From contig CASFVA010000033.1 of assembly GCA_949298075.1 (NCBI GenBank), positions 20,806 through 84,805 of the forward strand: 64,000 nt of DNA, in the 5' to 3' direction. The stretch is from an uncultured Lentisphaeria bacterium (GTDB lineage: Bacteria > Verrucomicrobiota > Lentisphaeria > Victivallales > Victivallaceae). Within the stretch, counting starts at the first letter, position 1. Each line of letters opens with the position of its first letter. The notes beneath the pieces were generated by a model. It had not been told where the DNA came from and did no database searches. It was given only the letters and a program-made list of their open reading frames with translations. Below, in pieces: positions 1,651 through 64,000 of the stretch. The translations under genes were made by a program, and so were the position numbers.

Positions 1651-1653
1651 GGT

Positions 1654-2886: not shown

Positions 2887-3571
2887 CCGCAGATCTCACA
2901 TGCTCCGCTCCCCGGCATCCGGCTCTGTTTGGACCGGAACGCCGACCGTTCAATATACCGCCTCCCCCTGCGGTTTTCAAGCCGGCTCCGGTTCCCGCTC
3001 CCCCCCCTGCACCCGCTTGTTAATAACTTGTTAATAAAAAGTGCCGCTTTTCGTTTTTTTTTCGTAAACCACCGCCGTCAGCCGAGATACATTTTTTGAG
3101 TTCCCCATCCGCCGTTCGTCCCGCCCGGCCGGGTGGCTGCCGGTCGCTTTTCCGCCTAAAATAGCTGTAATACACCTACTATCAAGCGGTTTGCCGGAAT
3201 GATGAAAAAATGCGTATTTTTCAGTCGGAAATCTCGTAACTTCCTGATCTGTTGCAAAGGAACTGCCGGTTGTCAATAACTTGATCCCGGCCGGTTCAAC
3301 CGTCGGAATCCCGATCATGCCGCCTCCTTGATCTATTTGCAAAAACTTCCATTCTGCGCTATTTTAAATTCAGGTCATCCGGATCAGTCCGGTCGTCGGT
3401 TTTCATCGGCCGCGGACTCCCTTTCTGAATGGTTGTTCCGATGCGTCAGCATTGGATCGGCCTCGGGGTTTTTTGTCCCCGACGGCCACGGAAAGAAATG
3501 CCGGAAACTGCGGTTGATTTTGAGGAATGAATGACGGCGGAGCTGCCTCGGCGGGTCCGACCGGATTCAGC

Positions 3572-3708
3572 CCGGAGCCGTGAACTGAAACGGCGGCCGG
3601 GGGGCTGTGAAGTTGACGTGGAACGGCAGCTGTGGAGAGCGCCGGAGCCGTGACCTGAACCGGCGGCCGGGGGCTGTGAAGTTGACGTGGAACGGCAGCA
3701 GAGGAAAG
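3572..3708. repeat. Tandem direct repeat, 2 copies of about 68 bp (ccggagccgtgaMctgaaMcggcggccgggggctgtgaagttgacgtggaacggcagc...)
   Basis: Read directly: copy 1 at about 3572-3640 and copy 2 at about 3641-3708, more than 90% identical. It sits in the long intergenic region upstream of dnaA and creates the Pro-rich spurious ORFs 3403..3813 and 3567..3806. Confidence 0.8.
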
Positions 3709-3730
3709 CCGGCTGGCTGGCAAGGCGGAG

Positions 3731-3778
3731 CCGGAATTGAAATATATATATAGTTTAAATATACAAGATAAGGATGTG
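3731..3778. other. AT-rich island (candidate DNA-unwinding element) upstream of dnaA
   Basis: aattgaaatatatatatagtttaaatatacaagataagga is an extreme AT-rich stretch in an otherwise high-GC context, about 230 nt upstream of the dnaA start codon. Confidence 0.4.
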
Positions 3779-4008
3779 CCTGACCGGTTCTCCGGTCCGT
3801 AAACACCGTGCATTTAAAATATCGCAGCCGGAAACCGGTGCTTGCGGCTGGCTACTGCCAGTTGGCCGGCGGTGGCGTCCGGCGTTGTGAAGGCGGGGCG
3901 AAGCGGTGCTTCAATCGGATCTGGTCAATCACTCCGCAGGTCGTTCCGGAACACCGGGCCCTCCGGGCCGCGGTTTCCGGAAATCAAGTTCAAGGTAACA
4001 ACAGCAAC

Positions 4009-10312: not shown

Positions 10313-10354
10313 GCGCACCTCCATCTTTCTTTAATACAGTTTACAGCTCTGCTG

Positions 10355-12217
10355 TCACCGTTTGATCTGAAACGCCGCCCGCAGCGCGGCCGGGTCGGAG
10401 TCTGCCAGCTTCAGTCCGACTTCATCGTCCAGCCCGATTTTGCCCTGATAACGGCTTTTGTACTCATAGGCGAATTCCGGAATCGCCAGCGTCAGCCTCT
10501 CCCCCTGCCGATCCACGGCCACACCGAAACCCTCCCAGTCCGGATGCAGCTTCAAATACACCAGCAGCCAGTATTCGTCGGCGTAGCGCTCCAACTTGCG
10601 CCGCACCGCCGCTCCGGCCTCGGAATAAGTCAGCGCGCTTTCCAGCTCCTCCCAAGTGAGCGGCTCCTCCCCGCGCATGATCCGTCGCAGCTGGTAATGG
10701 GCCCACAAATCAGCATATCGCCGCAACGGACTGGTGATCCGGGCATAGGGTTCCAGCCCCAGTCCGAAATGCCGCCCCGGCACCGGTCCCGGCACACTTG
10801 GCGCCGAATTGCGCCGCAATTCATACATGGCCGCCAGAGTTTCACCGCGCTCCGGAGTCTCCGGCGGCGCCTGGGTGACGAATGGAAACGCCGCCCCCTG
10901 CTCCGCCATGAATTTGGCCGCGGCATGACCGGCGGCCAACATCGCATTGGCCACCAGTTCGCGCTCCGGAGTCACCGGACAGGGCGTGATTACAATCTCA
11001 CGCCCCCGTACCACGGTCTTGACTTCCGGCAACCGGATGAACAATGCGCCCTCTCGACGGCGGCGTTCCCGGAATCGCTCCAGTTCCGACCTGATCTCGC
11101 GCAGCGGTGACTGTTCCCATTCGCCCGCCGCACTCTCATAAGTCAACCGGGTCACGGCAACCAGACTCGGCATCATCCGCTCCAGCACCGCTTCGCCGTC
11201 GGCAGTAATCCGGATCACGAAGGTCAGAGCCGGACTGACCGGTTTCAGCCCCAAACCGAACTGCGCCGTCGCCGCCTCCGGAAGCATCGGCACCACCCGT
11301 TCCGGCAGGTAGCAGGTCGCTCCCCGCAGGCGCGCCTCCCGATCCACCGGATCGCCGGGATGAATCACCGCCGCCGGATCCGCGACATGCACATAAAGGC
11401 AGCCATCAGCGAACGCCACCGCATCGTCCGGATCATCGCTGCCGGAATCATCAATGGCCAGCGAACGCATTCCGGTGAGATCGACTCTCGCCTCGTCAGG
11501 AAGTTCCGGCAGCGGCAGCTCAGAAGCTTGAGTCTCCACCCCCAGCCGCGCCGGCCAGGGGTCGACAAAACAATCCCAGACGCCCAGCTCCAGCAGCAGC
11601 CGGTGCGCCTTTTCCGGCGCCGCCTCAATTCCCAGCTCCTTCAACAGCCGGCTGCTGCCCGCGCTACCCAGCGCCACCGCTTCAATCTCGCGCAACGCCC
11701 GGCGATCCTCCGGAATCACCGCCCGGCGCCGGATCCGGTCAAGCAGCGCCTCCCGCGCCGCCCGTTCAGCTTCGCGCGCCTCCCGCGCCGCCCGGCGCTC
11801 AGCCAGAAGTTCCGGCGGCAACGGCGTAACTCCGGAGTCGATCGACCCCGAAAACCAGTCCCCGCCGGTCAGAACCCGCCACGCGGCATAATATTCCGGC
11901 GCCCCGCCGCGTCCGTAAGCCAGTTCGACCCACTCCCCGAACGAAAGCGTTTCATCATCCATCAATTCGACCACCGCCGGCCAGTCCGGCTCCGGCACCT
12001 CGGGAGGCGGCAGAACCGCCACCGGCCCCGGATGCAGAAATTCAATGTCCTTGGGCCGCACGCTGCGCTCGGTTCCGCCCTCGCCCCGGATCTCAATCTT
12101 ATCCCGCCCGATTCCGGTGATCACAGCACTCCGGCCCCGGTAAATTACCAACGCTCCGGTATTCAAATTACCCGCTCCATCCAATCCGCCGCCACCGTCG
12201 CGGCAATACTCTGTCAC
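10355..12217 (-). CDS. RNB-domain 3'-5' exoribonuclease (RNase II/RNase R family)
   Basis: The RNB catalytic region (DDPDDAVAFADGCLYVHVADPAAVI ... ITSPLRRYADLWAHYQL) is followed by a C-terminal S1-like domain. The track ORF extends to 12970, but that would run antisense through cysK. GTG at 12217 or a nearby codon is the probable start, so the boundary is uncertain. Confidence 0.75.
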   Translation of the reverse strand: MTEYCRDGGGGLDGAGNLNTGALVIYRGRSAVITGIGRDKIEIRGEGGTERSVRPKDIEFLHPGPVAVLPPPEVPEPDWPAVVELMDDETLSFGEWVELAYGRGGAPEYYAAWRVLTGGDWFSGSIDSGVTPLPPELLAERRAAREAREAERAAREALLDRIRRRAVIPEDRRALREIEAVALGSAGSSRLLKELGIEAAPEKAHRLLLELGVWDCFVDPWPARLGVETQASELPLPELPDEARVDLTGMRSLAIDDSGSDDPDDAVAFADGCLYVHVADPAAVIHPGDPVDREARLRGATCYLPERVVPMLPEAATAQFGLGLKPVSPALTFVIRITADGEAVLERMMPSLVAVTRLTYESAAGEWEQSPLREIRSELERFRERRRREGALFIRLPEVKTVVRGREIVITPCPVTPERELVANAMLAAGHAAAKFMAEQGAAFPFVTQAPPETPERGETLAAMYELRRNSAPSVPGPVPGRHFGLGLEPYARITSPLRRYADLWAHYQLRRIMRGEEPLTWEELESALTYSEAGAAVRRKLERYADEYWLLVYLKLHPDWEGFGVAVDRQGERLTLAIPEFAYEYKSRYQGKIGLDDEVGLKLADSDPAALRAAFQIKR

Positions 12218-12233
12218 GCTGACAATATAAGGC

Positions 12234-12262
12234 TTGACAGCGGCCTTGTCAACACTTATATT
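12234..12262 (+). promoter_or_regulatory. Sigma70-like promoter (TTGACA-17nt-TATATT) upstream of cysK
   Basis: Read directly: TTGACA at 12234-12239, a 17-nt spacer, then TATATT at 12257-12262. The RBS AAGGAG lies 8 nt before ATG 12314. Confidence 0.5.
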
Positions 12263-12313
12263 AGGCTCCGAAAGTGAAAACCGCTGATTTTCCCAGCCAA
12301 GGAGATCCTCGCA

Positions 12314-13246
12314 ATGGAACGTATCGCCGCCAATATACTCGAAACCATCGGACATACCCCCCTGGTCCGCATCAACCGCCTGAACGCCGGCAACCCCGCC
12401 GCCGTGCTGGCCAAAATCGAAAGCCGCAACCCCGGCGGCAGTGTCAAAGACCGGGTCGGAGCCGCCATGATCGCCGCCGCCGAAGCCGCCGGACTCCTGC
12501 GGCCCGGAGCCGTGGTGATCGAACCCACCAGCGGCAACACCGGCATCGGCCTGGCCGTGGCCTGCGCCGTCAAAGGTTATCGGCTCATTCTGACCATGCC
12601 CGAAACCATGAGCGTCGAACGGCGCAGACTGCTGGCAGCTTACGGCGCCCGCATCGTGCTGACTCCGGGGGCCGAGGGCATGCGCGGCGCCATTGACAGA
12701 GCCGAGGCCATCCGGGCGGCCACCCCCGGAGCGATCATTGCCGGACAGTTTGTCAATCCAGCCAATCCGGCCATCCACCGCGCCACCACCGCCCGGGAAA
12801 TCCTCGACGACACCGACGGCGAAATCGGAGCATTTGTGGCCGGAGTCGGTACCGGCGGAACGTTGACCGGCGTCGGGGAACAACTCAAAGCCGAGGTTCC
12901 CGGAGTGAAAATTGTCGCAGTGGAACCGGCGGACTCGGCAGTGCTTTCCGGCCGGCCGGCCGGCCCCCACCAGCTTCAGGGCATCGGGGCCGGATTTGTG
13001 CCCGAGGTGCTCAACACCGCCATCATCGACCGCATTGAAACCGTCTCATCCGACGAGGCCGGCACCACGGCCCGGCGCTGCGCCGCCGAAGAGGGAATCC
13101 TGATCGGAATATCGGGCGGAGCCGCGCTCTTCGCCGCTCTGAAACTCGCCGCCGAACCGGAGTTTTCCGGAAAAAAAATCGTGGTGCTGCTGCCGGACTC
13201 CGGGGAGCGCTACCTGTCAACCTGGCTTTTCAACGGAGAGAACTGA
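12314..13246 (+). CDS. cysK: Cysteine synthase A (O-acetylserine sulfhydrylase)
   Basis: 310 aa. The PLP-lysine motif is NPGGSVKDRVG, with TSGNTGIGLA and the GVGTGGTLTG glycine loop. Confidence 0.9.
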   Translation: MERIAANILETIGHTPLVRINRLNAGNPAAVLAKIESRNPGGSVKDRVGAAMIAAAEAAGLLRPGAVVIEPTSGNTGIGLAVACAVKGYRLILTMPETMSVERRRLLAAYGARIVLTPGAEGMRGAIDRAEAIRAATPGAIIAGQFVNPANPAIHRATTAREILDDTDGEIGAFVAGVGTGGTLTGVGEQLKAEVPGVKIVAVEPADSAVLSGRPAGPHQLQGIGAGFVPEVLNTAIIDRIETVSSDEAGTTARRCAAEEGILIGISGGAALFAALKLAAEPEFSGKKIVVLLPDSGERYLSTWLFNGEN

Positions 13247-51985: not shown

Positions 51986-53185
51986 ATGCGAATCGATGTT
52001 GAAGATTATTATCTGCCCGAAGACTGGAAGCGCATCCGGGAGGAAGCCGACCGCCACGAAACGCCGTTTCTCATCGTCAACCTGGATATTATCCGGCGCA
52101 AATACGAAGAGTTGCGGAAGTTTTTCCCTTTTGCCAAAGTATATTATGCGGTAAAATCCAATCCGGCGGTCGAAGTTCTGAAGCTGCTCCGCGACCTGGG
52201 CTCCTGTTTCGACGTCGCCTCGCGCTACGAACTCGACCGGCTGCTCTCGCTCGGCATCGACGCCTCCCGGGTCAGCTACGGCAATACGATCAAAAAAGCC
52301 GCCGACATTGAATATTTTTATCGGAAAGGGGTCCGTCTCTTCGCCACCGACAGCGAACAGGACGTCCGCAACCTGGCCAAATTCGCGCCCGGATCCAGGG
52401 TGTTCTGCCGGATTCTCACCGAAGGCAGCGAAACTGCCGACTGGCCGCTTTCCCGCAAATTCGGCTGCCATCCCGATATGGCAATCGACCTGCTGCTGAT
52501 GGCCAAAAAACAGGGACTTCACCCCTGCGGCATCAGTTTCCACGTCGGATCCCAGCAGCGCGAAATCGGCACCTGGGACTCCGCAATCGCCAAAGTGCGT
52601 TACATTTTCGACTATATGCAGGAGGAAGGCATCAAGCTCAGCCTCATCAACATGGGCGGCGGCTTTCCGGCCAACTACATCAGCAAAACCAACGCCATGG
52701 AGGTCTACGCCGAAGAGATCACCCGCTACCTTCAGGAAGACTTCGGCGACGAACTTCCCGAAATCATTCTGGAACCCGGCCGCTCGCTGGTCGGCGAATC
52801 CGGAGTCATCGTCAGTGAAGTCGTGCTCATCAGCCAGAAGTCGACCACCGGCGTGGACAAGTGGCTCTACGTCGATGTGGGCCGGTTCAACGGTCTGATT
52901 GAAACCTGGGATGAAAGCATCAAGTATCCGCTCTACTGCGAAGCCTACGGCCGGCTCAGCGAGGACTTCATCATTGCCGGGCCGACCTGCGACAGCCAGG
53001 ATATCATGTACGAATTCTTCCGCAACCCCCTGCCCTCGCACGTCGAACCCGGCGACCGGATTTACTGGCTGAGCTGCGGAGCTTACACGTCCAGCTATGC
53101 CTCGGTGGAATTCAACGGCTTCCCACCGCTGCCGGTCTACTTCATCGGCTCGGATCTGAAACCGGAAGAGCCCGCTTCAAAGTGA
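51986..53185 (+). CDS. Type III PLP-dependent ornithine/lysine decarboxylase (Orn/DAP/Arg decarboxylase family 2, ODC-like)
   Basis: The PLP-Lys region is YAVKSNP, followed by GGGFPANY, EPGRSLVGESG, and the C-terminal beta-barrel motif GPTCDSQDIM...WLSCGAYT. Confidence 0.75.
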   Translation: MRIDVEDYYLPEDWKRIREEADRHETPFLIVNLDIIRRKYEELRKFFPFAKVYYAVKSNPAVEVLKLLRDLGSCFDVASRYELDRLLSLGIDASRVSYGNTIKKAADIEYFYRKGVRLFATDSEQDVRNLAKFAPGSRVFCRILTEGSETADWPLSRKFGCHPDMAIDLLLMAKKQGLHPCGISFHVGSQQREIGTWDSAIAKVRYIFDYMQEEGIKLSLINMGGGFPANYISKTNAMEVYAEEITRYLQEDFGDELPEIILEPGRSLVGESGVIVSEVVLISQKSTTGVDKWLYVDVGRFNGLIETWDESIKYPLYCEAYGRLSEDFIIAGPTCDSQDIMYEFFRNPLPSHVEPGDRIYWLSCGAYTSSYASVEFNGFPPLPVYFIGSDLKPEEPASK

Positions 53186-53488
53186 ACTGATTTCCTCCCG
53201 GACAAATTCTCCGGAACAAAGTCCGCGCCTCCCGCCGTCCAGGCGCTGTTCCGGTACAGACTGGCCGGGAGTTTTTCATATTATCCCATCCCGGGGCAGC
53301 GGTTTGCCCGGAGTACTTTCCCGGCGCCGTCCTCTCAGCCGTCAGACGCGACGGCCCGCCGGGGAAACGGTAAAAAACGGCGGTGCGACGCGGATGCCTC
53401 CCCTCCCCGAGGCGGGATTGAGAGGCGATCCTGAAGAAAGTCCACACCATCCTGACTCCGCCGGCGGCGGCGCGTTATCCCGATGTCG

Positions 53489-55468
53489 TCAGTCGCAGTG
53501 AATACGATCGTTTTCGAGGCGCAGGGCCTCCAGTTCGGCGGCGGCCTCTTCCCACTCCGTCTCGGTGGCGGCAATGGCTTTTTCAACGTCGGCCAGTTCG
53601 CGGTTCACGGCGGCGAAGTTCAGCTTCATGCCGCTGGCCAGTTTGGTCAGCAGAATTTTGCGTTTTTCCGAATCGGCGTCCAGCCGCTCCTCCAGCGCTT
53701 CCAGCCGTTCCCGGGCCCGCTTGAGATCGCCGGCCAGCGCCTGACGCGCCCGAGCCCGCGCCCGGCGCCGCTCCCGGGCTGTTTCCGCGCCGCCGGAGGA
53801 ATCGCAAGCCCCCGGCGAAGCCATGGCGTCCGCTGCCGCGGATCCCATCCCCAGCTGGGCGGATTTTTCCAGATAGTAGTCGTAATTGCCCCAGTAGCGG
53901 CGCAGACCCCCGTCTTCCACGGCCAGAATCGACGTCGCCGTATTCCGGACGAATTCGATATCATGGCTAACCAGACAGACGGTGCCGCTGTAGCCGGCAA
54001 TCGCCCGCTGCAGCAATTCCCGTGCGGCGAGATCCAGATGGGTGGTCGGCTCATCGAGAATCAGCAGGTTGGGCGGATTGACGAAAATCCGCGCCAGCTG
54101 CAGCCGGATGCGCTCGCCGCCCGACAGCACACCGCAGGGCTTGGATACCGCATCGCCGGAAAACCCGAACGATCCCAGCACGTTGCACAGTCCGGACACC
54201 GAGGCTCCGGGCGGCAAGGCCTCCCGCACTGCGTCGTAGACGCTCATCTCGTCGCTGAGCAGCTCCGAAAATTCCTGCGCCTGATAACCGATCACGGTGC
54301 GGTGGCCGACCACCACCCGGCCGGCCAGCGGCTGCAGCCGCCCCGCCAGCAGTTTAAGAAATGTGGTTTTTCCCCGCCCGTTGTAACCGATTACCGCCAC
54401 CTTGTCACCGGAGTCAATTGTCAAATCAAGATCTTTGAAAAGCAGCCGGTCGGGAGTATATCCGAAGCTCAAACGCTCCATCCGGATCGCTTCGGTACCC
54501 CCGGGCGGCGGAGCCGGAAACCGGATGACCCCACGGTAATCCAGCGTCTCCTGCAGCTCCACCACCTCCATCGCCTCAAGCTTCTTCTGCCAGCTCCTGG
54601 CCTGTGCGGCCTTCGTACTCTTGGCCCGGAACCGTTCAATCACCCGCTCCATCTGCTCGCGTTTGCGGTCACTGTTGCGTTTGGCCGCTTCCAGGGCATG
54701 CTGCCGGCTGTCGCGTTCCCGGCGATAATAATCATAGTCGCCCGGATAGCGGATCACGGTTCCCCCGTTGACTTCGAGCGTAACCGCCGCCAGCTTGCGC
54801 AGCAGAAACCGGTCGTGCGAAATCAGCATGAGCGTACCGGGGAAACCGGCGAGGAAACGGCACAGCCACTCGATGGCCGGCACGTCGAGGTAGTTGGACG
54901 GCTCGTCCAGCAGCAGCGTGTCCGGGTGTGAAATCAGCACCCGGGCCAGCGCCGCCCGCATCTGCCAGCCGCCCGAGAACTCCCTGAGGGGGCGATCAAA
55001 GGATGACACCGGAAATCCCAGGTTGCTCAGGGCCTGCTTGGCCTCAAGATCGAGCCGGTAGACTCCGAGGTGCTCAACCATGGTCTGCAGCACGCCGTGC
55101 CGCTTCAATGCCCGGTCGAGCGCCTGATCGTCGTCCAAACCGCGCTCCAGCGCGGTCTCAAGATCCTTGAGTTCCGCGATGTACCCCGGTAGCTCCGGAA
55201 TGGCGTCGGCGGTAAAATCGAGCAGTGACCGCTCCAGTTCCGCCGGATCAATGCGCTGGCGCATGATTCCCAGCCGGTGGTCGCGCGGAATGGCCACCGT
55301 GCCGGAATCGGGAACCACTTCTCCGGTGATGATACCGAAAATCGTACTCTTGCCCGCTCCGTTGGGCCCGACCACTCCGACCCGCTCGCCGGAGTTGACC
55401 CGGAAACTCACATCCTTTAAAATGTATTTGCCGAAATAGCTTTTGGAAATATTCTGGAAGTCAATCAT
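53489..55468 (-). CDS. ABC-F family ATPase (tandem ABC domains + C-terminal coiled coil, Uup-like)
   Basis: Two Walker A motifs (GPNGAGKST and GYNGRGKTT), two LSGGxxxRL signatures (LSGGWQMR/LSGGERIR), no TM domain, and a C-terminal Arg/Glu-rich coiled coil. Confidence 0.85.
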   Translation of the reverse strand: MIDFQNISKSYFGKYILKDVSFRVNSGERVGVVGPNGAGKSTIFGIITGEVVPDSGTVAIPRDHRLGIMRQRIDPAELERSLLDFTADAIPELPGYIAELKDLETALERGLDDDQALDRALKRHGVLQTMVEHLGVYRLDLEAKQALSNLGFPVSSFDRPLREFSGGWQMRAALARVLISHPDTLLLDEPSNYLDVPAIEWLCRFLAGFPGTLMLISHDRFLLRKLAAVTLEVNGGTVIRYPGDYDYYRRERDSRQHALEAAKRNSDRKREQMERVIERFRAKSTKAAQARSWQKKLEAMEVVELQETLDYRGVIRFPAPPPGGTEAIRMERLSFGYTPDRLLFKDLDLTIDSGDKVAVIGYNGRGKTTFLKLLAGRLQPLAGRVVVGHRTVIGYQAQEFSELLSDEMSVYDAVREALPPGASVSGLCNVLGSFGFSGDAVSKPCGVLSGGERIRLQLARIFVNPPNLLILDEPTTHLDLAARELLQRAIAGYSGTVCLVSHDIEFVRNTATSILAVEDGGLRRYWGNYDYYLEKSAQLGMGSAAADAMASPGACDSSGGAETARERRRARARARQALAGDLKRARERLEALEERLDADSEKRKILLTKLASGMKLNFAAVNRELADVEKAIAATETEWEEAAAELEALRLENDRIHCD

Positions 55469-55480
55469 ATCCGGGTAAAA

Positions 55481-57265
55481 TCAGAACATCCGCGACTCGA
55501 TGGCGGTTTTGACCGCCTTCACTCCGGCGGAATAGGCGTCAAGGTAACGCCCCCCCTGCTTCTCCAGCGGAATGCCGACCGGATTGGTCCAGTCATCCCG
55601 TCCGTTGAAAAGAAACACCCGGGCCTCCTCGCGTTTGCCGTAGTCAATTTCGTCCACTGCCACCACCACGCCGACAAAATCCCCCTCGCGGGTCATCACG
55701 AAATCTCCGACGCCGGCCCGAAGCTCGCCGCCGACCCCCCGGGAATTGTTGCGGATAACCATAGTGGGAGTGGAACCGGAGAAATCCACCGAGCAACGGT
55801 CGGTCAGCTCCACGCTGGCTCCGCCGAAAGTGGAGAACTTGAACAGATGAAGCTCCCGCATACCGCGTTTTTTGAGCTGTTCGGCCGTCAGCAGCCGCAG
55901 CGGACGGATCCCGGCGGCAGGCTTGATCTCCACCGCCGCCACCCTCGGGTCGCGCCGCACCGCCTGCAACGGACCGGGAAGCACCTGCCGGGTGTCGGCC
56001 TTGCCCGGAGTCCGGGCGGCGTATTCCACCGCGGTCACCCGGTTGAACGACATCGCCCGGTCGGCATCGCCGGCAAACAGCGAAAAATAGCCCACCAGCA
56101 GCGGCCGTCCGCCGAAATCCACCACCGGCAGATAGTAACGGCCGCCGCCGCGAAGCTCGGAAATCAGCCGGTCCTCGCGCACGTCGATATCCACCTCAAG
56201 GGTCGCACTGCTGTAACTGCTCAGAACATCATTGCGCAGACGCTTCTCAACCTCGGCCAGCCGCCGGTTGGCAACCTGCAGTTTGACGGTGTTGTCCACC
56301 GCGGCCTTGCGGCTTTCGTCGAGAACTTTCTTGGTCTGTTCCAGTTCAACCCGGGTTTTGGAATATTCCGCCACGGTGCGTTTGACCACCTTCTGCATCT
56401 CGTCGCGCTGCCGCCGGGCGTCGCGCTCGGCCAGTTCCTGTTCCAGCAGTTTGCGGCGCAGCTGCTCTACCCGCCCCCTGTAGTCGGCCAGATCCCGCTC
56501 GGCGGCGTTGAGCCGGTTGCCGGTCACCGCCAGAGAGGTCTGAAGCGTCTGGGATTCCCGGGTCACCCGGCCCACCCGGTCACTCATTTCCCTGAGTGCC
56601 TCACGCACGCCGGCCAGATCACTCTCCCGGGCGGCAAGTTCCCGTCGCTGCTGTTCGGCCTGCTGTTCGGCGACCGCCACTTTGGCGTCCGCTTCCGACA
56701 GCCGGGTCCGGGTCCGGATCATCTCGTCGGAGAGCCGCGCCATCGCTTCGCCGGTGGTGCTGACCGTCCGCCGCAATTCGCCGGCTTCACTGCGGGCCGC
56801 CGCCAGGTCGCTCCGAACGGAGGTCAGATTCTCTTTGGCCGTGTTGAGATCCGTGCTTTTGTCTTTCAACTCGATTTCCGTGCGCAGCCGGCGTTCAATT
56901 TCTGCGTCGAGCCGTTTTTTCAGCTCTTCCGGAGTCAGCTCTCCGGTAGTTTCAGGAGTACGTTCCAGCGCGCCGCGCAGCTCTTCCGTGCGGCGCAGAT
57001 TGGCCGCAAGTTCCGCCGCCAGCCGCCGCAATTCCGCTTCACGCTCCGGCGTCGCCCCCAGCCGCACGGTTGCCTCGCGCAGCCGGTTCCGCAGCTGCTC
57101 CAGTTCGGAGCGCTTGTTTTCCAGTTCTGCCAGCAGCATGCGCGTCGTCGTCTCGTCAAGTCCGACCCCGGTGCCGCCGGAATGGGCCGCCACCATGCCG
57201 GTCATCATCGACAGCATCGCCGAGACCAGAAAGTCGCAGATGACTATTAATATAGCGCGATTCAC
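55481..57265 (-). CDS. Membrane-anchored long coiled-coil protein with MotB/ExbD-like Asp-containing TM helix and uncharacterized C-terminal domain (candidate B-subunit of a MotA/ExbB-type motor)
   Basis: 594 aa. The N-terminal single TM is ILIVICDFLVSAMLSMM (compare MotB YADF[VM]TAMMAFFL). About 350 aa of Arg/Glu/Leu-rich heptad coiled coil follows, then a roughly 250-aa C-terminal region with no motif I recognise. Translationally coupled to the upstream ExbB-like gene by a 4-nt overlap. Confidence 0.55.
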   Translation of the reverse strand: MNRAILIVICDFLVSAMLSMMTGMVAAHSGGTGVGLDETTTRMLLAELENKRSELEQLRNRLREATVRLGATPEREAELRRLAAELAANLRRTEELRGALERTPETTGELTPEELKKRLDAEIERRLRTEIELKDKSTDLNTAKENLTSVRSDLAAARSEAGELRRTVSTTGEAMARLSDEMIRTRTRLSEADAKVAVAEQQAEQQRRELAARESDLAGVREALREMSDRVGRVTRESQTLQTSLAVTGNRLNAAERDLADYRGRVEQLRRKLLEQELAERDARRQRDEMQKVVKRTVAEYSKTRVELEQTKKVLDESRKAAVDNTVKLQVANRRLAEVEKRLRNDVLSSYSSATLEVDIDVREDRLISELRGGGRYYLPVVDFGGRPLLVGYFSLFAGDADRAMSFNRVTAVEYAARTPGKADTRQVLPGPLQAVRRDPRVAAVEIKPAAGIRPLRLLTAEQLKKRGMRELHLFKFSTFGGASVELTDRCSVDFSGSTPTMVIRNNSRGVGGELRAGVGDFVMTREGDFVGVVVAVDEIDYGKREEARVFLFNGRDDWTNPVGIPLEKQGGRYLDAYSAGVKAVKTAIESRMF

Positions 57266-57816
57266 TTGCGATGATCTCCGGAGGCTTCAACCGTTTCGCG
57301 CACCAGTTTCTGCCGCAGCGGATACTGCATCGACAGCCGCAGCACCAGACTGAAAATGATTCCGATCAGAGTCGAACTGTAGGCGATCAGCCGGCTGCTT
57401 TGCGGCGAAAACGTCATGACCAGAAACGCCGACACCGTACCGAAAAGTCCGACATAGAGCGGCACATCGAAAAAGATCTCGGCGTTTTCCAGCCGCCGCA
57501 GCTTGAGTTCAGTCGAGTCGTCGCTGCGCCGGATCCCGGACACCACCGTGCCGCCGATAACCAGCGCCACGAACTGCATCACCGTGATCACGGCGAAAAT
57601 CAGCATCGAAATCCGGGCCGTAAGCCGACCGCGCGCCGCGAGACTGGCCTCGGAATTGGCCGGAACCTCCCCGAACACGCTGCCGGAATCGCCGCCGGAA
57701 AAAATATCCCGCACCAGCGCCGAATGTTCAAAACCATAATTCATCAGCCAGATAAATCCGCCGCCGAGAACCACAATCAGCAGGGTCGGCCACAGCCGGA
57801 ATCCATTCTTCTTCAT
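57262..57816 (-). CDS. MotA/TolQ/ExbB proton-channel family protein (small, 4 TM)
   Basis: 184 aa. TM3 carries GLFGTVSAF, which matches the ExbB/TolQ signature GL[FL]GTVWGI. The RBS GGGAGAG precedes ATG 57816, an internal start relative to track ORF 57262..57951. Confidence 0.6.
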   Translation of the reverse strand: MKKNGFRLWPTLLIVVLGGGFIWLMNYGFEHSALVRDIFSGGDSGSVFGEVPANSEASLAARGRLTARISMLIFAVITVMQFVALVIGGTVVSGIRRSDDSTELKLRRLENAEIFFDVPLYVGLFGTVSAFLVMTFSPQSSRLIAYSSTLIGIIFSLVLRLSMQYPLRQKLVRETVEASGDHRK

Positions 57817-57904
57817 TATCCTGTCTCTCCCATGACTGAAAATTCCACCGCACGAACTCCACCGTCTGCGCGTCCGCCGCCGGAGAATTTGTTCAAAACG
57901 GCAT

Positions 57905-57933
57905 AATATAAAACCGCTGCCGGAATTATTCAA
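57905..57933 (-). promoter_or_regulatory. Sigma70-like promoter (TTGAAT-17nt-TATATT, minus strand) upstream of the ExbB-like gene, overlapping the 3' end of nadK
   Basis: Read directly from the reverse complement of 57905-57933: TTGAAT, a 17-nt spacer, then TATATT. Confidence 0.4.
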
Positions 57934-58678
57934 GCACCTTGAAACCGGCAAACGGCAGCTTGTTGGGGTGCCGCAGCAGCCGGCAGCGCGGACACATGAA
58001 ATCGGCCAGTCCGTAAACCAGGGCCTCGCAGCTGCTCTGGCGCAGCGTAACCACGCCGCCTTCAGGCACCGTGAGACGGAGCGGCGAATTGTCGGCGATC
58101 AGCAGCCCCGGACCGCGGACCACTTCAATTTCAACCTGCGAGGACTCCTCCAGCACCAAATGATTGACCTCCTCGGTGGAGTTGCTGAAAGCCAGCCCGA
58201 TGCCGACCCGGAACAGGCTGTGGGTGATGCTCCGGTAATACGCCGAACTGCCGTGCACACTGGCCAGCCCGACGCCGTCGCCCACCACCTCATTGGCGTA
58301 AAGCACTCCGTCGATCCGCACCCGGTAACGCAGCGCGCTGGCGTGGTCGACGTTGTGCAGAAAAACATCGTTTACCGCATGAACCTTTTCCCCGCCGTAC
58401 CCCCCCTCCAGCTTGCGCAGCCGGGTCAGCGGCAGAGCGCCCGCCACGAATCCGGCCAGCCGCAGCTCGGACTTGTGCAGCGAACACAGGGGAGCGGTCG
58501 CGGCGTCGCGCAACGGCAGCTTGGGAACGCCCGGGAAATCCCGCTCGGCTCCCAGAAGTGCGCCATCTCCGCCGTGAGTCACCACCAGCTCAAATCCGCA
58601 GTCACACTCTTCCAGCCCGTTGGCGGCCAGCAGCGGCCGGATATCCTCCAGGTTTTTGCCGACCAGTTTTATTTTCAT
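57926..58678 (-). CDS. nadK: NAD+ kinase
   Basis: The GGDG motif is VTHGGDGALLGA and the NDV motif is AVNDVFL. ATG 58678 overlaps the stop of the upstream SpoU gene (TGATG). Confidence 0.85.
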   Translation of the reverse strand: MKIKLVGKNLEDIRPLLAANGLEECDCGFELVVTHGGDGALLGAERDFPGVPKLPLRDAATAPLCSLHKSELRLAGFVAGALPLTRLRKLEGGYGGEKVHAVNDVFLHNVDHASALRYRVRIDGVLYANEVVGDGVGLASVHGSSAYYRSITHSLFRVGIGLAFSNSTEEVNHLVLEESSQVEIEVVRGPGLLIADNSPLRLTVPEGGVVTLRQSSCEALVYGLADFMCPRCRLLRHPNKLPFAGFKVLE

Positions 58679-59211
58679 CAATCGCCGCCTTTCCTGCAAA
58701 TTGAATTTCCGTCGCACTCCGCCGCAGCGTTCCGGCCGGCGGCATAGTGAACCGCGTAGAGAATCGCCGCCGCCGCATTGCCGACGTTGATCGAAGCCTT
58801 GACGCCGAGCATCGGCAGTCCGATCCGTCCGTCCACCAGGGCCAGCGCCTCGTCCGAGACCCCCAGCGCCTCGTTTCCGAAAATCACCGCCAGCGGGAAC
58901 CGGTAGCGGGCCTCCCAGGCCAAAATGCTTCCGTCACCGGGTTCAGCCGCAAGGATCTGGCGGAACCCCTCGTCCCGCAGCACCGTCACCGCCGCCGCGG
59001 CCGAAGTCATCACCCGGCAGGGAACCAGCCGGTCCGTCCCCATGGCAGTCTTGACCAGACGCGGATGCGGCGGAGCCGGAGTATAGCCGCAGGCGATGAT
59101 CTCCGCCACCCCCAGGGCCTCCGCGATCCTGAATATATTGCCGACGTTGTGTGCGCTGCGCAGCCGGTCAAGCACAATGACCAGCCGGCCGGGCTGGAAA
59201 TCGTTTGCCAT
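58678..59211 (-). CDS. SpoU/TrmH-family RNA 2'-O-methyltransferase
   Basis: SPOUT motifs are present: LDRLRSAHNVGNIFRIAEALG, VIFGNEALGVS and INVGNAAAILY. I chose ATG 59211. Confidence 0.75.
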   Translation of the reverse strand: MANDFQPGRLVIVLDRLRSAHNVGNIFRIAEALGVAEIIACGYTPAPPHPRLVKTAMGTDRLVPCRVMTSAAAAVTVLRDEGFRQILAAEPGDGSILAWEARYRFPLAVIFGNEALGVSDEALALVDGRIGLPMLGVKASINVGNAAAAILYAVHYAAGRNAAAECDGNSICRKGGD

Positions 59212-59369
59212 TGCCGTCTGTAGCTCCACCCGAGGTTGTACCGAGGTTATGCATTGCATAAAGTAGCCGCATTTCCCGGGTTTTACAAGTCCGGCGCCCT
59301 TGCCTGAACCGCTTTATGAGGCTATATTAAGAGAAAACCGTATACAAACCGCCCAACCGAGGTAAAATC

Positions 59370-60170
59370 ATGGCGAAGATCCATCCCACCAGCGTTGTCA
59401 GCGACGGCGCAATCCTCGACGACAGCGTCGAAGTCGGTCCGTTCTGTTTTGTCGGGCCCCACGTCAAAATCGGTCCGGAGACCCGGCTGCTCGGCCATTG
59501 CAATATCGACGGCCACACCACCCTCGGACGCGGCAACGTGGTGCATCCCTTTGCCTCGCTCGGCCAGCCGGCCCAGGATCACGCGGTGGAGCCGGGCAAG
59601 GCCACCTACCTCAACATCGGCGATGACAATGTGTTCCGGGAGGGCTGCACCATTCACACCGGCACCAAGCCGGATACCGCCACCGTCATCGGCAGTCACA
59701 ACATGTTCATGAACTGCACCCACGTCGCCCACAACTGCCGGGTCGGCAACCACGTGATTTATGTCGGATACGCCGGCACCGCCGGGTACTGCGAGGTGTT
59801 TGACCACGCGCTGCTCTCCGGACTGGTTGGAATCCACCAGTTCTGCCGGGTGGGCCGGTTTGCGATCATTTCGGGCGGTTCGGTATTCAGCAAGGACGTG
59901 CCTCCGTTCATGATGGCCGAGGGACGCAACGGCGGCGTGAAAATGATCAACAAAATCGGGCTGCAGCGCGCCGGCTTCAGCGAGGAATGCATCACGGTGA
60001 TCAAACACCTGTTCCGGATTTACTACCGCAGCGGCCTGGCGCCGGCCAATGCCATTGAAAAAATCAAGACCGAACTGCCCCAGATTCCTGAGGTGGTGGA
60101 ATTCATCGAATTCTGCGCCGCCAGCAAACGCGGCGTCATCGCCGCCCATTCCGAGGGGCACCGCAACTGA
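59370..60170 (+). CDS. lpxA: Acyl-ACP--UDP-N-acetylglucosamine O-acyltransferase
   Basis: The N-terminus is MAKIHPTSVVSDGAILDDSVEVGPFCFVGPHVKIG with left-handed beta-helix hexapeptide repeats. Length 266 aa. Confidence 0.9.
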   Translation: MAKIHPTSVVSDGAILDDSVEVGPFCFVGPHVKIGPETRLLGHCNIDGHTTLGRGNVVHPFASLGQPAQDHAVEPGKATYLNIGDDNVFREGCTIHTGTKPDTATVIGSHNMFMNCTHVAHNCRVGNHVIYVGYAGTAGYCEVFDHALLSGLVGIHQFCRVGRFAIISGGSVFSKDVPPFMMAEGRNGGVKMINKIGLQRAGFSEECITVIKHLFRIYYRSGLAPANAIEKIKTELPQIPEVVEFIEFCAASKRGVIAAHSEGHRN

Positions 60171-60263
60171 CGGAGCGGACCGCCGCCAGAACTGTCGCGA
60201 CGGCGCCGCCGGGTGGAAACCCGGGTGCCGCCGACCGCATTTTGAACTCTGTGGAGGAGAACT

Positions 60264-61919
60264 ATGAAACTTGAAGCTCTGAAAAAAAATCCGAAATTCA
60301 CCCCCCGGCGCGGGCCGGTGGTGCTGGCGATTCTGGACGGTGTCGGCTACGGCAAATACAGCGACGGCGATGCGGTTAAGCGTGCCAACATGCCCACGTT
60401 CCGCAGTCTGCTGGAGCACTGCCCCAACACCCGGCTCAAAGCGCACGGGACGGCGGTCGGAATGCCGTCCGACGCCGACATGGGCAACAGTGAGGTCGGT
60501 CACAACGCCATCGGCTGCGGCCGGGTCTTTTCGCAGGGGGCCAAGCTGGTTGAAGAAGCGGTTTCATCGAAGAAGCTTTTTGCCGGCGATGTCTGGAAAC
60601 AGCTGATTGACAACGTCAACTCCCGCAACAGCACACTGCACTTCATCGGATTGTTCTCCGATGGCAACGTTCACAGCCACATCGATCATCTCAAGGCGAT
60701 GCTGCTGGAAGCCCGGGCGGCCGGAGTCAAACGGGCCCGGATACACATTCTGCTCGACGGACGCGACGTGCCGGAAACCTCGGCCCTGGACTATGTCGGC
60801 CCCTTTGAAGCATTTCTGGCTGAACTCAACGCGGCTGGAGCCGATTACCGGATTGCCTCCGGCGGCGGCCGCATGGCGATCACCATGGACCGCTACGGAG
60901 CCAACTGGGATATGGTGCGCCGGGGATGGGAAATCCACGTTCACGGCAACGGCGAGAAATTCAAAAGCGCGACGGACGCCATTACCGCCCTGCGGGAACG
61001 CACCGGGGCGATTGACCAGGATCTGCCGCCCTTTGTGATCTCCGACGACGGAGCGACGCCGGTGGGAGCAATTGAAGACGGCGACTCGGTGATTTTCTTC
61101 AACTTCCGGGGCGACCGCTCGCTGGAAATCACCGCCGCGTTTGAGAACGACGATTTCGACCACTTCGACCGGGGACGGCGGCCGCAGGTGATGTATGCCG
61201 GAATGATGGAGTACGACGGCGATCTGCATGCGCCGCGGCTCTATCTGGTCAATCCTCCGGAAATCGACCGTACCATGGATGAATACCTCTGTGCATCCGG
61301 AGTTCGTCAGCTGGCGGTCAGTGAAACCCAGAAATACGGCCACGTCTCCTACTTTTTCAACGGCAACCGTTCAGGCAAATTCAATGACCAGTACGACGAA
61401 TACGAGGAAATCCGTTCCGACGTAGTGCCGTTTGAACAGCGTCCGTGGATGAAATGCGCGGAAATCACCGACCGGGTGGTCGCGGCCATCGGGAGCGGAG
61501 ACTTCGGCATGATCCGGCTCAACTTCCCCAACGGTGACATGGTGGGCCACACCGGTGACATCAACGCGGTGATCGTGGCGATGGAGGCGCTGGATCTCTG
61601 CCTGACCCGGATCAAGGCGGCGGTGGATGCAGCCGGAGCGGTGCTGGTCATTTCCGCCGATCACGGCAATGCTGACGACATGTACGAACACAAGAAGGAC
61701 GGTTCGCTCAAGACGGACTCCGACGGCAACCCGGCGCGTAAAACCAGCCATTCACTCAATCCGGTGCCGTGCATTGTCTACGACCCGGAAAGCCATGGTG
61801 AATATCTGCCGGAACTGCGCAGCGGCCTGGGCATCAGCTCGCTGGCGGCGACCTGCATTGAACTGCTGGGGTATCAGGCTCCGGAGGGCTATGATCCGAG
61901 CGTGCTGCAGTTCAGGTAA
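60264..61919 (+). CDS. gpmI: 2,3-bisphosphoglycerate-independent phosphoglycerate mutase (long, plant/trypanosome-type iPGM)
   Basis: 551 aa with the metal-binding and Ser-phosphorylation region LAILDGVGYG...SDADMGNSEVGHNAIG and a C-terminal SADHGNADDM. The RBS GGAGGAG precedes ATG 60264. Confidence 0.9.
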   Translation: MKLEALKKNPKFTPRRGPVVLAILDGVGYGKYSDGDAVKRANMPTFRSLLEHCPNTRLKAHGTAVGMPSDADMGNSEVGHNAIGCGRVFSQGAKLVEEAVSSKKLFAGDVWKQLIDNVNSRNSTLHFIGLFSDGNVHSHIDHLKAMLLEARAAGVKRARIHILLDGRDVPETSALDYVGPFEAFLAELNAAGADYRIASGGGRMAITMDRYGANWDMVRRGWEIHVHGNGEKFKSATDAITALRERTGAIDQDLPPFVISDDGATPVGAIEDGDSVIFFNFRGDRSLEITAAFENDDFDHFDRGRRPQVMYAGMMEYDGDLHAPRLYLVNPPEIDRTMDEYLCASGVRQLAVSETQKYGHVSYFFNGNRSGKFNDQYDEYEEIRSDVVPFEQRPWMKCAEITDRVVAAIGSGDFGMIRLNFPNGDMVGHTGDINAVIVAMEALDLCLTRIKAAVDAAGAVLVISADHGNADDMYEHKKDGSLKTDSDGNPARKTSHSLNPVPCIVYDPESHGEYLPELRSGLGISSLAATCIELLGYQAPEGYDPSVLQFR

Positions 61920-62021
61920 TTTGAGTTACGGACGCGGCGGAGTCAAAAAACCGCCGCGTTTTTTCATTTTACCGCTTGAAAAGTGCTGTTACCCGGCATA
62001 TATTAAGTAACATCATCATGG

Positions 62022-62098
62022 GCACCCGTAGCTCAGTTGGATAGAGCGTCTGCCTCCGGAGTAGAAGGTCTCGCGTTCGAGTCGCGACGGGTGTACCA
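62022..62098 (+). tRNA. tRNA-Arg (anticodon CCG)
   Basis: Folded by eye as a 77-nt cloverleaf: acceptor GCACCCG/CGGGTGT with G1-U72; D-arm GCTC-AGTTGGATA-GAGC; anticodon stem TCTGC/GTAGA with loop CTCCGGA (anticodon CCG); T-arm TCGCG-TTCGAGT-CGCGA; 3' CCA encoded. Confidence 0.85.
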
Positions 62099-62110
62099 TT
62101 TTTTATGATT

Positions 62111-62156
62111 GAAAATCAGCGAGTTGCAAAATTGTAAAACTCGCTGATTTTTTTGT
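62111..62156 (+). terminator. Hairpin + T-run downstream of tRNA-Arg
   Basis: An 11-bp stem AAATCAGCGAG/CTCGCTGATTT with a 16-nt loop, followed by TTTTTTT. The loop is larger than in a classic terminator. Confidence 0.45.
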
Positions 62157-62547
62157 CTTTGTTGCCGGTTGAAACATGGCCGATTTGCCCGCCGTTATGA
62201 CGGCTCGCCGTTCAACTTTTAAGCCGCTTCCGCAGCCCGCCGCCGAGGGCGGACGAATCTCCGCCCCCCCGCGTTCCCATGCACCAGGAACGCCCCGTCC
62301 GGGATCGGCCTGCCCGTGCAGTCGGCGGTCGAGGAATTTTACATGCCCTACGGGGCGGCAAAATTCGGCGGCAAATGCGCCCGGAGTCTGTTTGACGGGC
62401 GCGGGTCGTTTTATCTGAACGAAACCGGCCGCGGACCGGACCAGAGGATCACTCCGGCGATGCTTCGGCAGGCCGGCCGGCGGCTCCGGCAGGAGATTGA
62501 ACGCCACCGGCGTCTGAAAGCTGAAAACGTAAAAAAACAACTTGAAA

Positions 62548-62576
62548 TTGAAAAATGCGAACCTCCATGCTATATT
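62548..62576 (+). promoter_or_regulatory. Sigma70-like promoter (TTGAAA-17nt-TATATT), preceded by a second tandem TTGAAA, for the zinc-ribbon/TM2 gene
   Basis: Read directly: TTGAAA at 62548-62553, a 17-nt spacer, then TATATT at 62571-62576. The SD GGAGG lies 7 nt before ATG 62608. Confidence 0.4.
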
Positions 62577-62607
62577 GGCTTACAGCCATCAGCATGGAGG
62601 TGTTTTT

Positions 62608-63228
62608 ATGAGGATGCGTTGCCCGCACTGCGGCCAGAAGTACGAAATTGACGACGATCTCACCGGGCAGGAGTTGGAGTGTTCCGCCTGCGGAAAAACC
62701 TTCACTGCCGTGCAGTCGTCCCCCCCGGCGGCACTCGTTTCGTCGCCTGAACTCAAACCGAAGACAGCTCCCATGCCGGAGCCTAGACCGGCGTCCGCCA
62801 AACTGCCATTGCCGCCGGGTAAACGTGGTATTGTACTTCCTAAACAAAACAGAACCCGTTGTTGCCCGATGTGCGGAGAGGAAATTCTTGTATTTGCAAA
62901 AAAATGCCGCTTCTGCGGAGAATATTTTGACAATTCGGGAAAGCCGCGCAACCCGAACAACCGTGCAATCTACGTTCTCCTTGCCCTGTTCTTGGGCGGA
63001 TTTGGCGCTCACAACTTTTATGAAGGTGACAACAAAACTGCAATTGCTCATATTATTGTTACTATAATACTGTTAGCGCTGTTTATGGCGATCCCGGTTT
63101 ATATTAATTCTTGGGTAGAGGCCAGCATTGGCATCGCCGCCGGTGTTCTCGGACTGCTGAATTTTCTGTGGATTATCATCGAAATTTGTGCAGGGCGTTC
63201 AATTGTTCGATGGTTGAAATCTGAATGA
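62608..63228 (+). CDS. Double zinc-ribbon + TM2-domain membrane protein
   Basis: Two CxxC...CxxC zinc ribbons (MRCPHCGQKYEID...CSACGKTF and CCPMCGEEILVFAKKCRFCGEYF), then the TM2-domain signature AIYVLLALFLGGFGAHNFYEGDNKTAIAHIIVTI with two TM helices. The gene has markedly lower GC than the rest of the window. Confidence 0.65.
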   Translation: MRMRCPHCGQKYEIDDDLTGQELECSACGKTFTAVQSSPPAALVSSPELKPKTAPMPEPRPASAKLPLPPGKRGIVLPKQNRTRCCPMCGEEILVFAKKCRFCGEYFDNSGKPRNPNNRAIYVLLALFLGGFGAHNFYEGDNKTAIAHIIVTIILLALFMAIPVYINSWVEASIGIAAGVLGLLNFLWIIIEICAGRSIVRWLKSE

Positions 63229-63325
63229 TATTGCCGTTGCCGCCCGGAAATTTCCGGGCGTTTTTTTTGACGTGATTTCCGGCTCTGTTGACAACCTCCG
63301 GTCTGATGGACAGGAGGTTTTTTTA

Positions 63326-64000
63326 TGGGATTTGACTTGGGAACGGTCAGCGCCACCGTCGTGCTGGATGATTCCGATTACCGGCGCGGGCTGAGCGGAC
63401 TGGAGAGTGCCAGCGCCGGCACCTTCCGGCGCATTGCCGGCTATGCCGCCGGATATTTGTCAGTACGTGCATTGTCCGGATTTGTCACCGGCGCGATGGC
63501 GGAGTTCTCCAAGCTCGAAGAGGGCAACAATAAACTCAAATACACCTTTACCGAGCTCGAAAACGAGGCGGCCCGTGCTGCCCGGACCATTGCGCAGACC
63601 TTCAACGTGTCGGAGCAGACGGCCACCAACGCCATCGCCGATATCGGAGATTTGTTGACCGGACTGGGGTTTGAACAATCAGACGCCCTGCGTTTTGCCG
63701 ATCAGATCACCCGCCGCGGAATTGACGTGGCCAGTTTCAAGGGATTGGATCAGAGTGAAACCATCCGCCGCATGACGGTGGCGCTCACCGGCGAAACCGA
63801 CAGCCTGAAAATGATGGGGGTGGTGATCCGGCAGGACACCGATGAATTCCGGCAGCAGGTCGCGGCGATTCAGGCGTCAACCGGCGCCACCGAAACCATG
63901 GCCAAGGCGCAGGTGATTTTACAGCAGGTCATGCGGCAGACGAAAAACGCCGAAGGGGACTATCTGCGTCCCGATGCGCCGCGGACCTATGCACAGGAAT
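63326..64000 (+). CDS. Phage tail tape-measure-like protein, N-terminal part (runs off window end)
   Basis: An SD caGGAGGttttttt precedes ATG 63326 and the frame is open to the window end. This ORF is absent from the track because it has no stop in the window. The N-terminus MGFDLGTVSATVVLDDSDYRRGLSGLESASAGTFRRIAG resembles the conserved start of siphovirus-type tape measure proteins, followed by helical TMP-like sequence. Confidence 0.5.

Follow-up and report, generated by a model that had tools for sequence, protein, structure and literature searches.

A probable decayed tail-gene remnant of a siphovirus-like Lentisphaeria phage next to a tRNA-Arg gene, with a zinc-ribbon/TM2 gene that looks like a retained moron

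Cryptic prophage remnants of the e14, Rac and Qin type in E. coli K-12 are generally known as short runs of late genes with truncated ends, lying among housekeeping genes near a tRNA gene. Structural genes decay in such remnants, one accessory gene is kept, and the extent differs between strains. A locus with the same traits lies at the 3' end of a 64,000-nucleotide stretch of contig CASFVA010000033.1 (hereafter the window) from an uncultured Lentisphaeria bacterium. There, a host tRNA-Arg(CCG) gene is followed by a fragment of the tail assembly chaperone segment T, an intact gene for a membrane protein with two zinc ribbons and a TM2 domain, and the beginning of a tail tape measure protein (TMP) gene (Table 1). 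We consider it likely that the DNA from 62319 to 64000 is a decayed, defective tail-gene remnant of a siphovirus-like temperate Lentisphaeria phage. The ancestral prophage would have been eroded by deletions from both flanks, and selection would have kept the zinc-ribbon/TM2 gene after the phage had decayed. Unlike the E. coli remnants, the window holds no integrase or att scar, so that the original site of insertion is not demonstrable; its host is an uncultured bacterium, and its parent phage is known from loci in metagenome-assembled genomes (MAGs) and metagenomes alone.

In phage lambda, the tail genes reportedly follow the order tube gene, gpG and gpGT (the latter by a -1 programmed frameshift) and tape measure gpH, an arrangement attributed to Xu, Hendrix and Duda in 2004. 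A comparable order was found in four related loci. Scans with the TMP stub of the window detected two Lentisphaeria MAGs (L001 and L002) and a metagenome contig (L003) at 74% identity, and L004 was added by protein look-up. In all four the same genes stand inside a full siphovirus-like morphogenesis cluster, in the order capsid, terminase, small head-tail open reading frames (ORFs), putative tube, G, T, an optional zinc-ribbon/TM2 gene, a TMP of about 800 aa and distal tail genes. Just upstream of TMP the relatives carry a G-like ORF (123 aa) with an A6-A8 slippery run near its end, overlapping the T ORF; L002 and L003 have T in frame -1, and in L001 and L004 the run length, and hence the apparent frame offset, varies. 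We take this combination of G-like ORF, slippery run and T ORF to be the classic gpG/gpGT chaperone arrangement. The relatives are thus like lambda in the G-like ORF, the slippery A-run, the overlapping T ORF and the long TMP. They are unlike it in showing no sequence kinship at the Pfam level and in having an extra gene between T and TMP. The TMP gene of L001-L004 lies downstream of the G/GT pair and upstream of distal tail genes; before the TMP gene of the window there is a T remnant alone, so that what the window retains is the end of T and the beginning of TMP. No sheath-sized gene was seen between terminase and TMP in the relatives, and from these gene sizes we infer a non-contractile tail type.

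When all L001 proteins were compared with the window by tblastn, three matches only were obtained: T at 62319-62519, the zinc-ribbon protein at 62593-62940 and TMP at 63325-63999. A tblastx comparison of the whole of L001, L002 and L004 with the 62 kb upstream gave no further real phage match, and no counterpart of the terminase, capsid, minor head, tube or chaperone G proteins of the relatives was found anywhere in the window. The tRNA-Arg gene and housekeeping genes occupy the place of the missing upstream phage genes. The T match is to L001 ORF 8439-8762. Homology begins at about residue 35 of this 106-aa ORF, the 3' two-thirds of T being kept. In the relatives the overlapping T ORF begins ...DYDFLACRIMREFGW..., and conservation reaches upstream of the T ATG; this conserved N-terminal part (DYDFLACRIMREFGW...) was sought in all three frames of the window and was not found. 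Neither G nor the slippery site is in the window. T arises solely by frameshifting, as a fusion to G, and both G and the slippery site are missing, so that the T fragment is most simply regarded as dead. The open frame 62316-62651, which includes it, was rejected as a real gene: the N-terminal part and the G/slippery site are missing, and in the upstream frame the strains are set apart by indels and a stop.

The third piece is the start of a TMP gene, its ATG at 63325-63327. The original prediction had noted a resemblance to siphovirus tape-measure N-termini in an ORF running off the window end. The identification holds, and the frame is indeed open to 64000 (225 codons); the start is at 63325 and not at the implied 63326. 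The 225-aa part matches PHROG 1535 'tail length tape measure protein' (E=1e-7, residues 19-215) and is 74% identical to residues 1-225 of the 798-aa L003 protein. An exhaustive search returned 11,219 homologues of the TMP N-domain at E<=1e-3. Nearly all of the best 150 are 500-1550 aa long with the domain N-terminal, and the 52 homologues that were sampled have matches to over 20 TMP PHROGs between them, the best at E=4e-26. By tblastn, 123 phage records match; those listed are annotated as tape measure or minor tail protein, and most of the matched phages are Arthrobacter siphoviruses, with about 26% of residues identical across 85-96% of the query. From the PHROG, homologue and phage-record matches, to which the chaperone context in the relatives is added, the tape-measure reading is sound. 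In contrast, the models PF10145 (PhageMin_Tail, Pfam) and TIGR01760 (NCBIfam), with which the original prediction had proposed to check it, matched neither the window ORF nor the full-length L003 protein nor any of the 52 homologues, and no non-phage family of Pfam or NCBIfam matched the N-domain. Judged by these comparisons, the N-domain is a TMP lineage outside the coverage of the two models. The domain is about 220 aa long, with L111, D134, S137, G156, G165 and other residues nearly invariant among homologues P0010-P0157. A match to PDB chain 8vjh_Q 'Tape measure' (E=2e-7) was left unused, as it lies outside the N-domain only, and the other PDB profile matches were mostly coiled-coil noise. 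Full-length relatives of the protein have 798-1551 aa; in the window, 225 codons are visible before the sequence ends. When the TMP stub was used to search contigs of genomes and metagenomes, only the 74%-identical relatives came up, and a viral collection gave none.

The TMP gene is preceded by a conserved leader, which is present in seven of seven loci and has a consensus fold of 11 pairs with one compensatory pair. Its hairpin is 10-11 bp long and carries the Shine-Dalgarno sequence GGAGG in the 3' arm. From the predicted fold, the leader looks like an intrinsic terminator that would also mask the ribosome-binding site.

A tape measure gene open to the window end might also belong to a tail-producing element that still works and of which only the left edge is visible here, either an oddly ordered prophage or an F-type tailocin, with TMP and the tail genes after it intact and the missing functions further on. 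The TMP ORF is unbroken for 225 codons and host-like in codon composition, and its conserved leader is intact. Moreover, the homologous TMP of another contig (L016) lies behind regulator-like ORFs with no chaperones before it, so that gene order is not fixed in this phage group. We nevertheless hold such an element to be unlikely. T is cut in mid-gene and not expressible without G, and no tube or chaperone gene precedes TMP. An F-type tailocin would combine tube and chaperones with TMP in the absence of head genes, and the window has neither tube nor G upstream of TMP; an intact prophage would show contiguous head, packaging and tail modules, which the window does not contain, T being truncated besides. 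No integrase was found in 62022-64000, as the original prediction had stated, nor in the sister-strain locus described below, where the same upstream junction is followed by 47 TMP codons and then by host genes. A collection of 5.8 billion sequences has no cluster at >=90% identity for TMP though the protein of the neighbouring gene on the same contig is present in it (P0278, from NCBI, 100% identical), an indirect hint that TMP may not be annotated as a protein, as would fit a pseudogene. With no tube, chaperone or head genes beside it, the tape measure stub is probably non-functional, however long it may be. As for the prophage or tailocin edge originally proposed, the DNA is phage-derived; no intact element starts at the tRNA, since the phage homology begins in the middle of T and tube, G, head and terminase genes are missing. 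A gene transfer agent-like element was set aside as well: the relatives show phage-like mosaicism and an insertion sequence (IS), and the window is without head genes.

The junction from the tRNA to T is common to four independent assemblies besides the window. L006 and L007, from two samples of one study, are 99.7% identical to it and have the same tRNA, spacer and T fragment. L012 and L013 represent a sister strain, which was found through its 94%-identical zinc-ribbon/TM2 protein; L012 is colinear with window positions 52576-63465 (96.6% identity over 10.9 kb), and L013 covers 62038-63465 (92.8% over 1.4 kb). In the sister strain, colinearity within TMP ends at 63465 (codon 47), and a minus-strand Epimerase_2 gene, an acyltransferase gene and a polysaccharide synthesis cluster follow. 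The phage DNA of this lineage amounts to about 1.15 kb, with nothing phage-like after it. A downstream region free of phage structural genes, the outcome that the original prediction had named as speaking against it, is seen in the sister strain and not in this genome. Taken together, the junction is real and old, and its far side is variable.

The same comparison bears on the possibility that an inversion or recombination has split a complete prophage, or that the contig is chimeric beyond about 63465. L006 and L007 both end at 62710. L014 links window positions 62687-63443 (99.9% identical), which stop near the 63465 breakpoint, to 510 bp of unrelated, visibly lower-GC DNA that ends an unidentified ORF (L014 1-510); the L006/L007 ends and the L014 junction overlap by 24 bp (62687-62710). 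This suggests that the population carries an insertion or alternative arrangement inside the zinc-ribbon gene. In addition, the leader of the zinc-ribbon gene is repeated within another Lentisphaeria contig (L005) and could mediate recombination. Against this, the order iPGM, tRNA, T, zinc-ribbon/TM2 gene and TMP up to codon 47 is continuous in L012 and L013, and L006 and L007 support it up to 62710. The remnant of L012 is flanked on both sides by host genes within 1.4 kb, and no hidden half is adjacent there. A rearrangement or assembly fault is thus very unlikely to account for the locus.

That strains with a divergence of about 3.4% share the unit at one locus could be read in still another way, namely that T fragment, zinc-ribbon/TM2 gene and TMP N-domain form a domesticated host module in which the N-domain has a cellular role. 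L005 likewise retains only the first ~182 TMP residues beside zinc-ribbon genes. The strain comparison makes this highly improbable: the sister strain has 47 TMP codons only, the TMP part differs between window and sister strain by 2 non-synonymous versus 1 synonymous substitutions, and indels and a stop-codon difference lie upstream of T. The TMP N-domain also matched no Pfam or NCBIfam family outside phages.

Several points weigh against a decayed remnant, which we still prefer. First, the TMP frame is open over all of its 225 visible codons and 74% identical to full-length relatives, and a long TMP with tail genes may follow past 64000. Secondly, the path beyond 63465 is vouched for by the window alone, and the contig breaks at 62710 together with the L014 join mean that the locus is structurally heterogeneous in nature. 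Thirdly, the T fragment has 8 changes in 225 bp between strains (omega 0.31), which neither proves nor excludes residual function. The ratio of 0.17 given below for the zinc-ribbon/TM2 gene comes from 35 substitutions in a single pairwise comparison. Finally, the promoters, terminators and hairpins are consensus and folding predictions, for which sigma-70 rules were applied in a little-studied phylum.

Morons are said to occur in lambdoid and HK97-like phages, as described by Juhala et al. in 2000. The zinc-ribbon/TM2 gene shares with them that it is a single gene between late genes, with its own predicted promoter and terminator, lower GC content and presence or absence among related phages. 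Its GC at third codon positions (GC3) is deviant, 0.53 versus 0.72 in the adjacent TMP. It differs in that two zinc ribbons with a TM2 domain are not a known moron function, and it is on these sequence features a putative moron. Among the relatives, the zinc-ribbon gene is directly upstream of TMP in L003 and L004, separated from it by two extra ORFs in L001, and absent from L002. The TM2 part is clearly kept only in the L003 copy; L001 has another C-terminal membrane segment, and in L004 a TM2-like stretch lies in another frame.

The double zinc ribbon and TM2 domain of the original prediction were borne out by Pfam. Zn_ribbon_4 matches residues 1-33 (35.2 bits, cut-off 30.3) and TM2 residues 116-158 (47.1 bits, cut-off 27.9). 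Zn_Ribbon_1 at residues 86-104 scores 23.7 bits, slightly below its 25-bit cut-off; its four cysteines are invariant. TIGR02098, for the MJ0042-type zinc ribbon, matches with 23.5 bits (cut-off 20.9), and PHROG 10292, whose function is unassigned, with E=3e-16. In 11 homologues the eight zinc-ribbon cysteines and the TM2 motif G..H.FY.G are all invariant. Hydrophobic segments were found at 141-172 and 169-200, at least two strong ones following the first TM2 helix. The product, as far as these predictions go, is probably anchored in the cytoplasmic membrane, and both zinc ribbons would lie in the cytoplasm. In domain content and order it is like known zinc-ribbon plus TM2 proteins (PF13717 with PF05154), and the precomputed Pfam domains of the homologues agree; it is unlike them in that the window family has another zinc ribbon and a proline-rich linker besides, and the site directly upstream of TMP is specific to this phage group. 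We know of no function for bacterial TM2 proteins. No match to the protein was found by tblastn in 50,697 phage records, the PADLOC defence models gave only a zinc-ribbon motif match that is not meaningful, and a PDB sequence search returned small zinc-ribbon proteins only. Titles and abstracts of the literature on TM2, zinc ribbons and phages and on Lentisphaerae prophages yielded nothing on function.

Between window and L012, the gene differs by 22 synonymous and 13 non-synonymous changes, a ratio of non-synonymous to synonymous rates (dN/dS) of 0.17; it is 0.10 in the part comprising the second ribbon and TM2, as compared with 0.09 in iPGM. The zinc-ribbon/TM2 gene therefore looks to be the only clearly functional part of the fragment, and its pattern of change looks like that of a moron that outlived its prophage under purifying selection. 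A distant homologue (30% identity) was found in L015 (1072-4278), where it has a SocA_Panacea-domain protein on one side and a large serine recombinase on the other. The site is at the margin of an integrated element and borders host genes, so that the homologue is again mobile-element cargo.

As a putative moron, the gene would be transcribed from its own promoter, independently of late transcription of the phage, and its transcript would stop at its own terminator. At the position equivalent to the predicted promoter, L001, L003, L004 and L005 have TTGACA-17-TATATT. A leader of the same design as that of TMP precedes the zinc-ribbon gene at window 62548-62607, L003 606-675, L004 9343-9410 and L005 198-265 and 2868-2935. 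In the predicted fold its hairpin has the Shine-Dalgarno GGAGG in the 3' arm and the -10 box in the loop, and a T-run and the ATG come next. With the -10 box in the loop, a transcript from the gene's own promoter would start too late to include the 5' arm, so that the ribosome-binding site would stay accessible. In read-through transcripts the complete hairpin would form, together with its U-run. If the leader acts as a switch, own-promoter transcripts would be translatable and late read-through transcripts would be terminated or masked.

The gene may be one by which the prophage protected its lysogen, for example through superinfection exclusion at the membrane that blocks DNA entry of related phages, and which the host retained after decay. 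This is our best guess at its role, a speculative one offered by analogy and unlikely though not negligible. Ltp of Streptococcus phage TP-J34 is reportedly a superinfection exclusion lipoprotein that acts on the tape measure protein of the incoming phage. The likeness is one of idea only, a prophage-encoded envelope protein expressed in the lysogen; Ltp has no sequence or domain similarity to the zinc-ribbon/TM2 protein and is a lipoprotein.

The base composition of the locus was compared with the 61.4% GC of the whole window. The gene at 62608-63228 is AT-rich, as originally noted, with 50.4% GC (44% in its TM2 part), and equally low values occur in only 0.8% of 620-bp windows. Its GC3 may be compared with 0.75-0.81 in the housekeeping genes iPGM and lpxA (iPGM 0.75). 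The low-GC island said to begin immediately 3' of the tRNA is not uniform: 62099-62607 has 56% GC, the ORF from 63325 is host-like with 59.6%, and the dip to about 0.46 is limited to 62800-63300. Low GC is a property of one gene, that for the zinc-ribbon/TM2 protein, and there is no uniform island starting at the tRNA.

The tRNA-Arg(CCG) is the sole tRNA in the 64 kb. It was called by ARAGORN at the place originally given, Rfam RF00005 agrees with 61.3 bits, and an Rfam scan had no other match. It is identical in L006 and L007 and, taken with 12 nt of 3' flank, 96.6% identical in L012. The 14-bp stem of its terminator-like hairpin is unchanged in L012 and L013, the differences being confined to the loop. 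The predicted tRNA promoter and that of the zinc-ribbon/TM2 gene have the same hexamers at the same spacing. Upstream lie housekeeping genes for iPGM (60264-61919), an Acetyltransf_11 hexapeptide-repeat protein (LpxA-like), a SpoU methylase and an ABC-F protein. Downstream, the open frame 62316-62651 is followed by the intact gene and by the ORF that is open at 64000. The phage homology starts about 220 bp from the tRNA. The intervening 160-bp spacer has no match in the related phage loci and differs between window and sister strain by a 30-bp indel, an 8-bp indel and a stop codon, as expected of non-coding DNA.

The 3' ends of tRNAs had been named as classic integration sites. No second copy of that of tRNA-Arg, such as could be an att repeat, was found in the window or in the 10 kb downstream in L012. 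In relatives at a greater distance, whose iPGM is 82% identical, an AraC-family gene comes after iPGM and there is no tRNA, so that synteny offers no empty-site comparison. Integration at tRNA-Arg is plausible but unproven.

Table 1. Coordinates of the tRNA unit, the phage-derived pieces and their predicted signals
Feature	Position	Strand	Basis
Predicted sigma-70-like promoter of the tRNA gene, TTGAAA-17-TATATT	61976..62004	+	Consensus scan, 10/12 matches
tRNA-Arg(CCG), host gene, upstream boundary of the phage-derived DNA	62022..62098	+	ARAGORN, Rfam RF00005
Intrinsic-terminator-like hairpin of the tRNA: perfect 14-bp stem, 12-nt loop, T7 run	62112..62158	+	Inverted repeat I4
Spacer between tRNA unit and first phage homology, probably non-coding	62159..62318	.	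No phage-locus match
Remnant of T, the -1 frameshift extension of tail assembly chaperone G; 5' end missing, pseudogene fragment	62319..62540	+	tblastn
Predicted promoter of the zinc-ribbon/TM2 gene, TTGAAA-17-TATATT, TG before the -10 box	62548..62576	+	Consensus scan
Predicted leader hairpin 5' of the zinc-ribbon/TM2 gene, arms 62562-62571 and 62591-62600	62562..62600	+	RNAfold, window and five related leaders
Intact zinc-ribbon/TM2 gene, moron-like: 206-aa membrane protein, two zinc ribbons and TM2 domain	62608..63228	+	Pfam, conservation, composition, dN/dS
Intrinsic-terminator-like hairpin 3' of the zinc-ribbon/TM2 gene: 8 pairs (7 GC) and T8 run	63241..63268	+	Terminator scan
Conserved TMP leader: TGTTGACA, hairpin 63293-63319 (Shine-Dalgarno in 3' arm), T-run up to the ATG	63286..63324	+	Seven loci aligned
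Copies of the TMP leader	Window 63286-63327; L001, L002, L004 9953-10011; L003 1149-1207; L005 718-775; L012 10672-10729		
First 225 codons of the TMP gene, open to the window end	63325..64000	+	PHROG 1535, homologues, sister-strain breakpoint

The related loci differ among themselves. In L003 the 798-aa TMP is followed by three plus-strand ORFs (274-352 aa) that match no family and are presumably tail genes by position. L004 encodes, in order, a 496-aa protein, a scaffold, an SU10-type major capsid protein, a Phage_min_cap2 minor capsid protein, a 177-aa protein, the large terminase, seven small ORFs, the zinc-ribbon protein and TMP; eleven more plus-strand genes lie beyond TMP, one of them with a Laminin_G_3 domain. 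Terminase and minor head protein were also found in L001 and L002. The order within L004 1-9000 is unusual, since the capsid module (496-aa protein, scaffold, SU10-type capsid, minor capsid) stands before the terminase genes. The minor capsid protein of L004 also has a Gln_amidase domain, and its L001 and L002 counterparts have other C-terminal parts; by analogy, these variable C-termini resemble the polymorphic toxin domains that head proteins of the MuF-like (Mu gpF) kind carry. In L001, a low-GC insert with a DDE_Tnp_1 transposase (the IS mentioned above) lies at 2000-4500 between minor head and terminase genes. The TMP of this long-read MAG is split at 10001-12415 into 394 and 408 aa, through either real decay or a homopolymer error.

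L005 carries, at 198-3400, a scrambled remnant. TMP residues 1-182 (a called ORF of 162 aa) are followed there by a 260-aa ORF whose homology is to the C-terminal domain of the minor head protein, the one with the HEFGHW motif. On either side of this TMP/minor-head piece stands a zinc-ribbon gene, the leaders of the two being identical. Beyond them lie host SOS genes, for an S24 peptidase, a flavin reductase and a UmuC-like polymerase.

For the bacterium itself, the locus would be an ordinary genome scar; it points to no working prophage, tailocin or new system and carries little weight for biology at large. It documents a family of siphovirus-like temperate phages of gut or environmental Lentisphaeria, whose TMP N-domain has over 11,000 homologues and escapes the Pfam and NCBIfam models. 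The hairpin of the TMP leader suggests a testable idea, that of a possible dosage control for tail assembly. The zinc-ribbon/TM2 gene, for its part, may serve as a clean example of a moron outliving its prophage under purifying selection.

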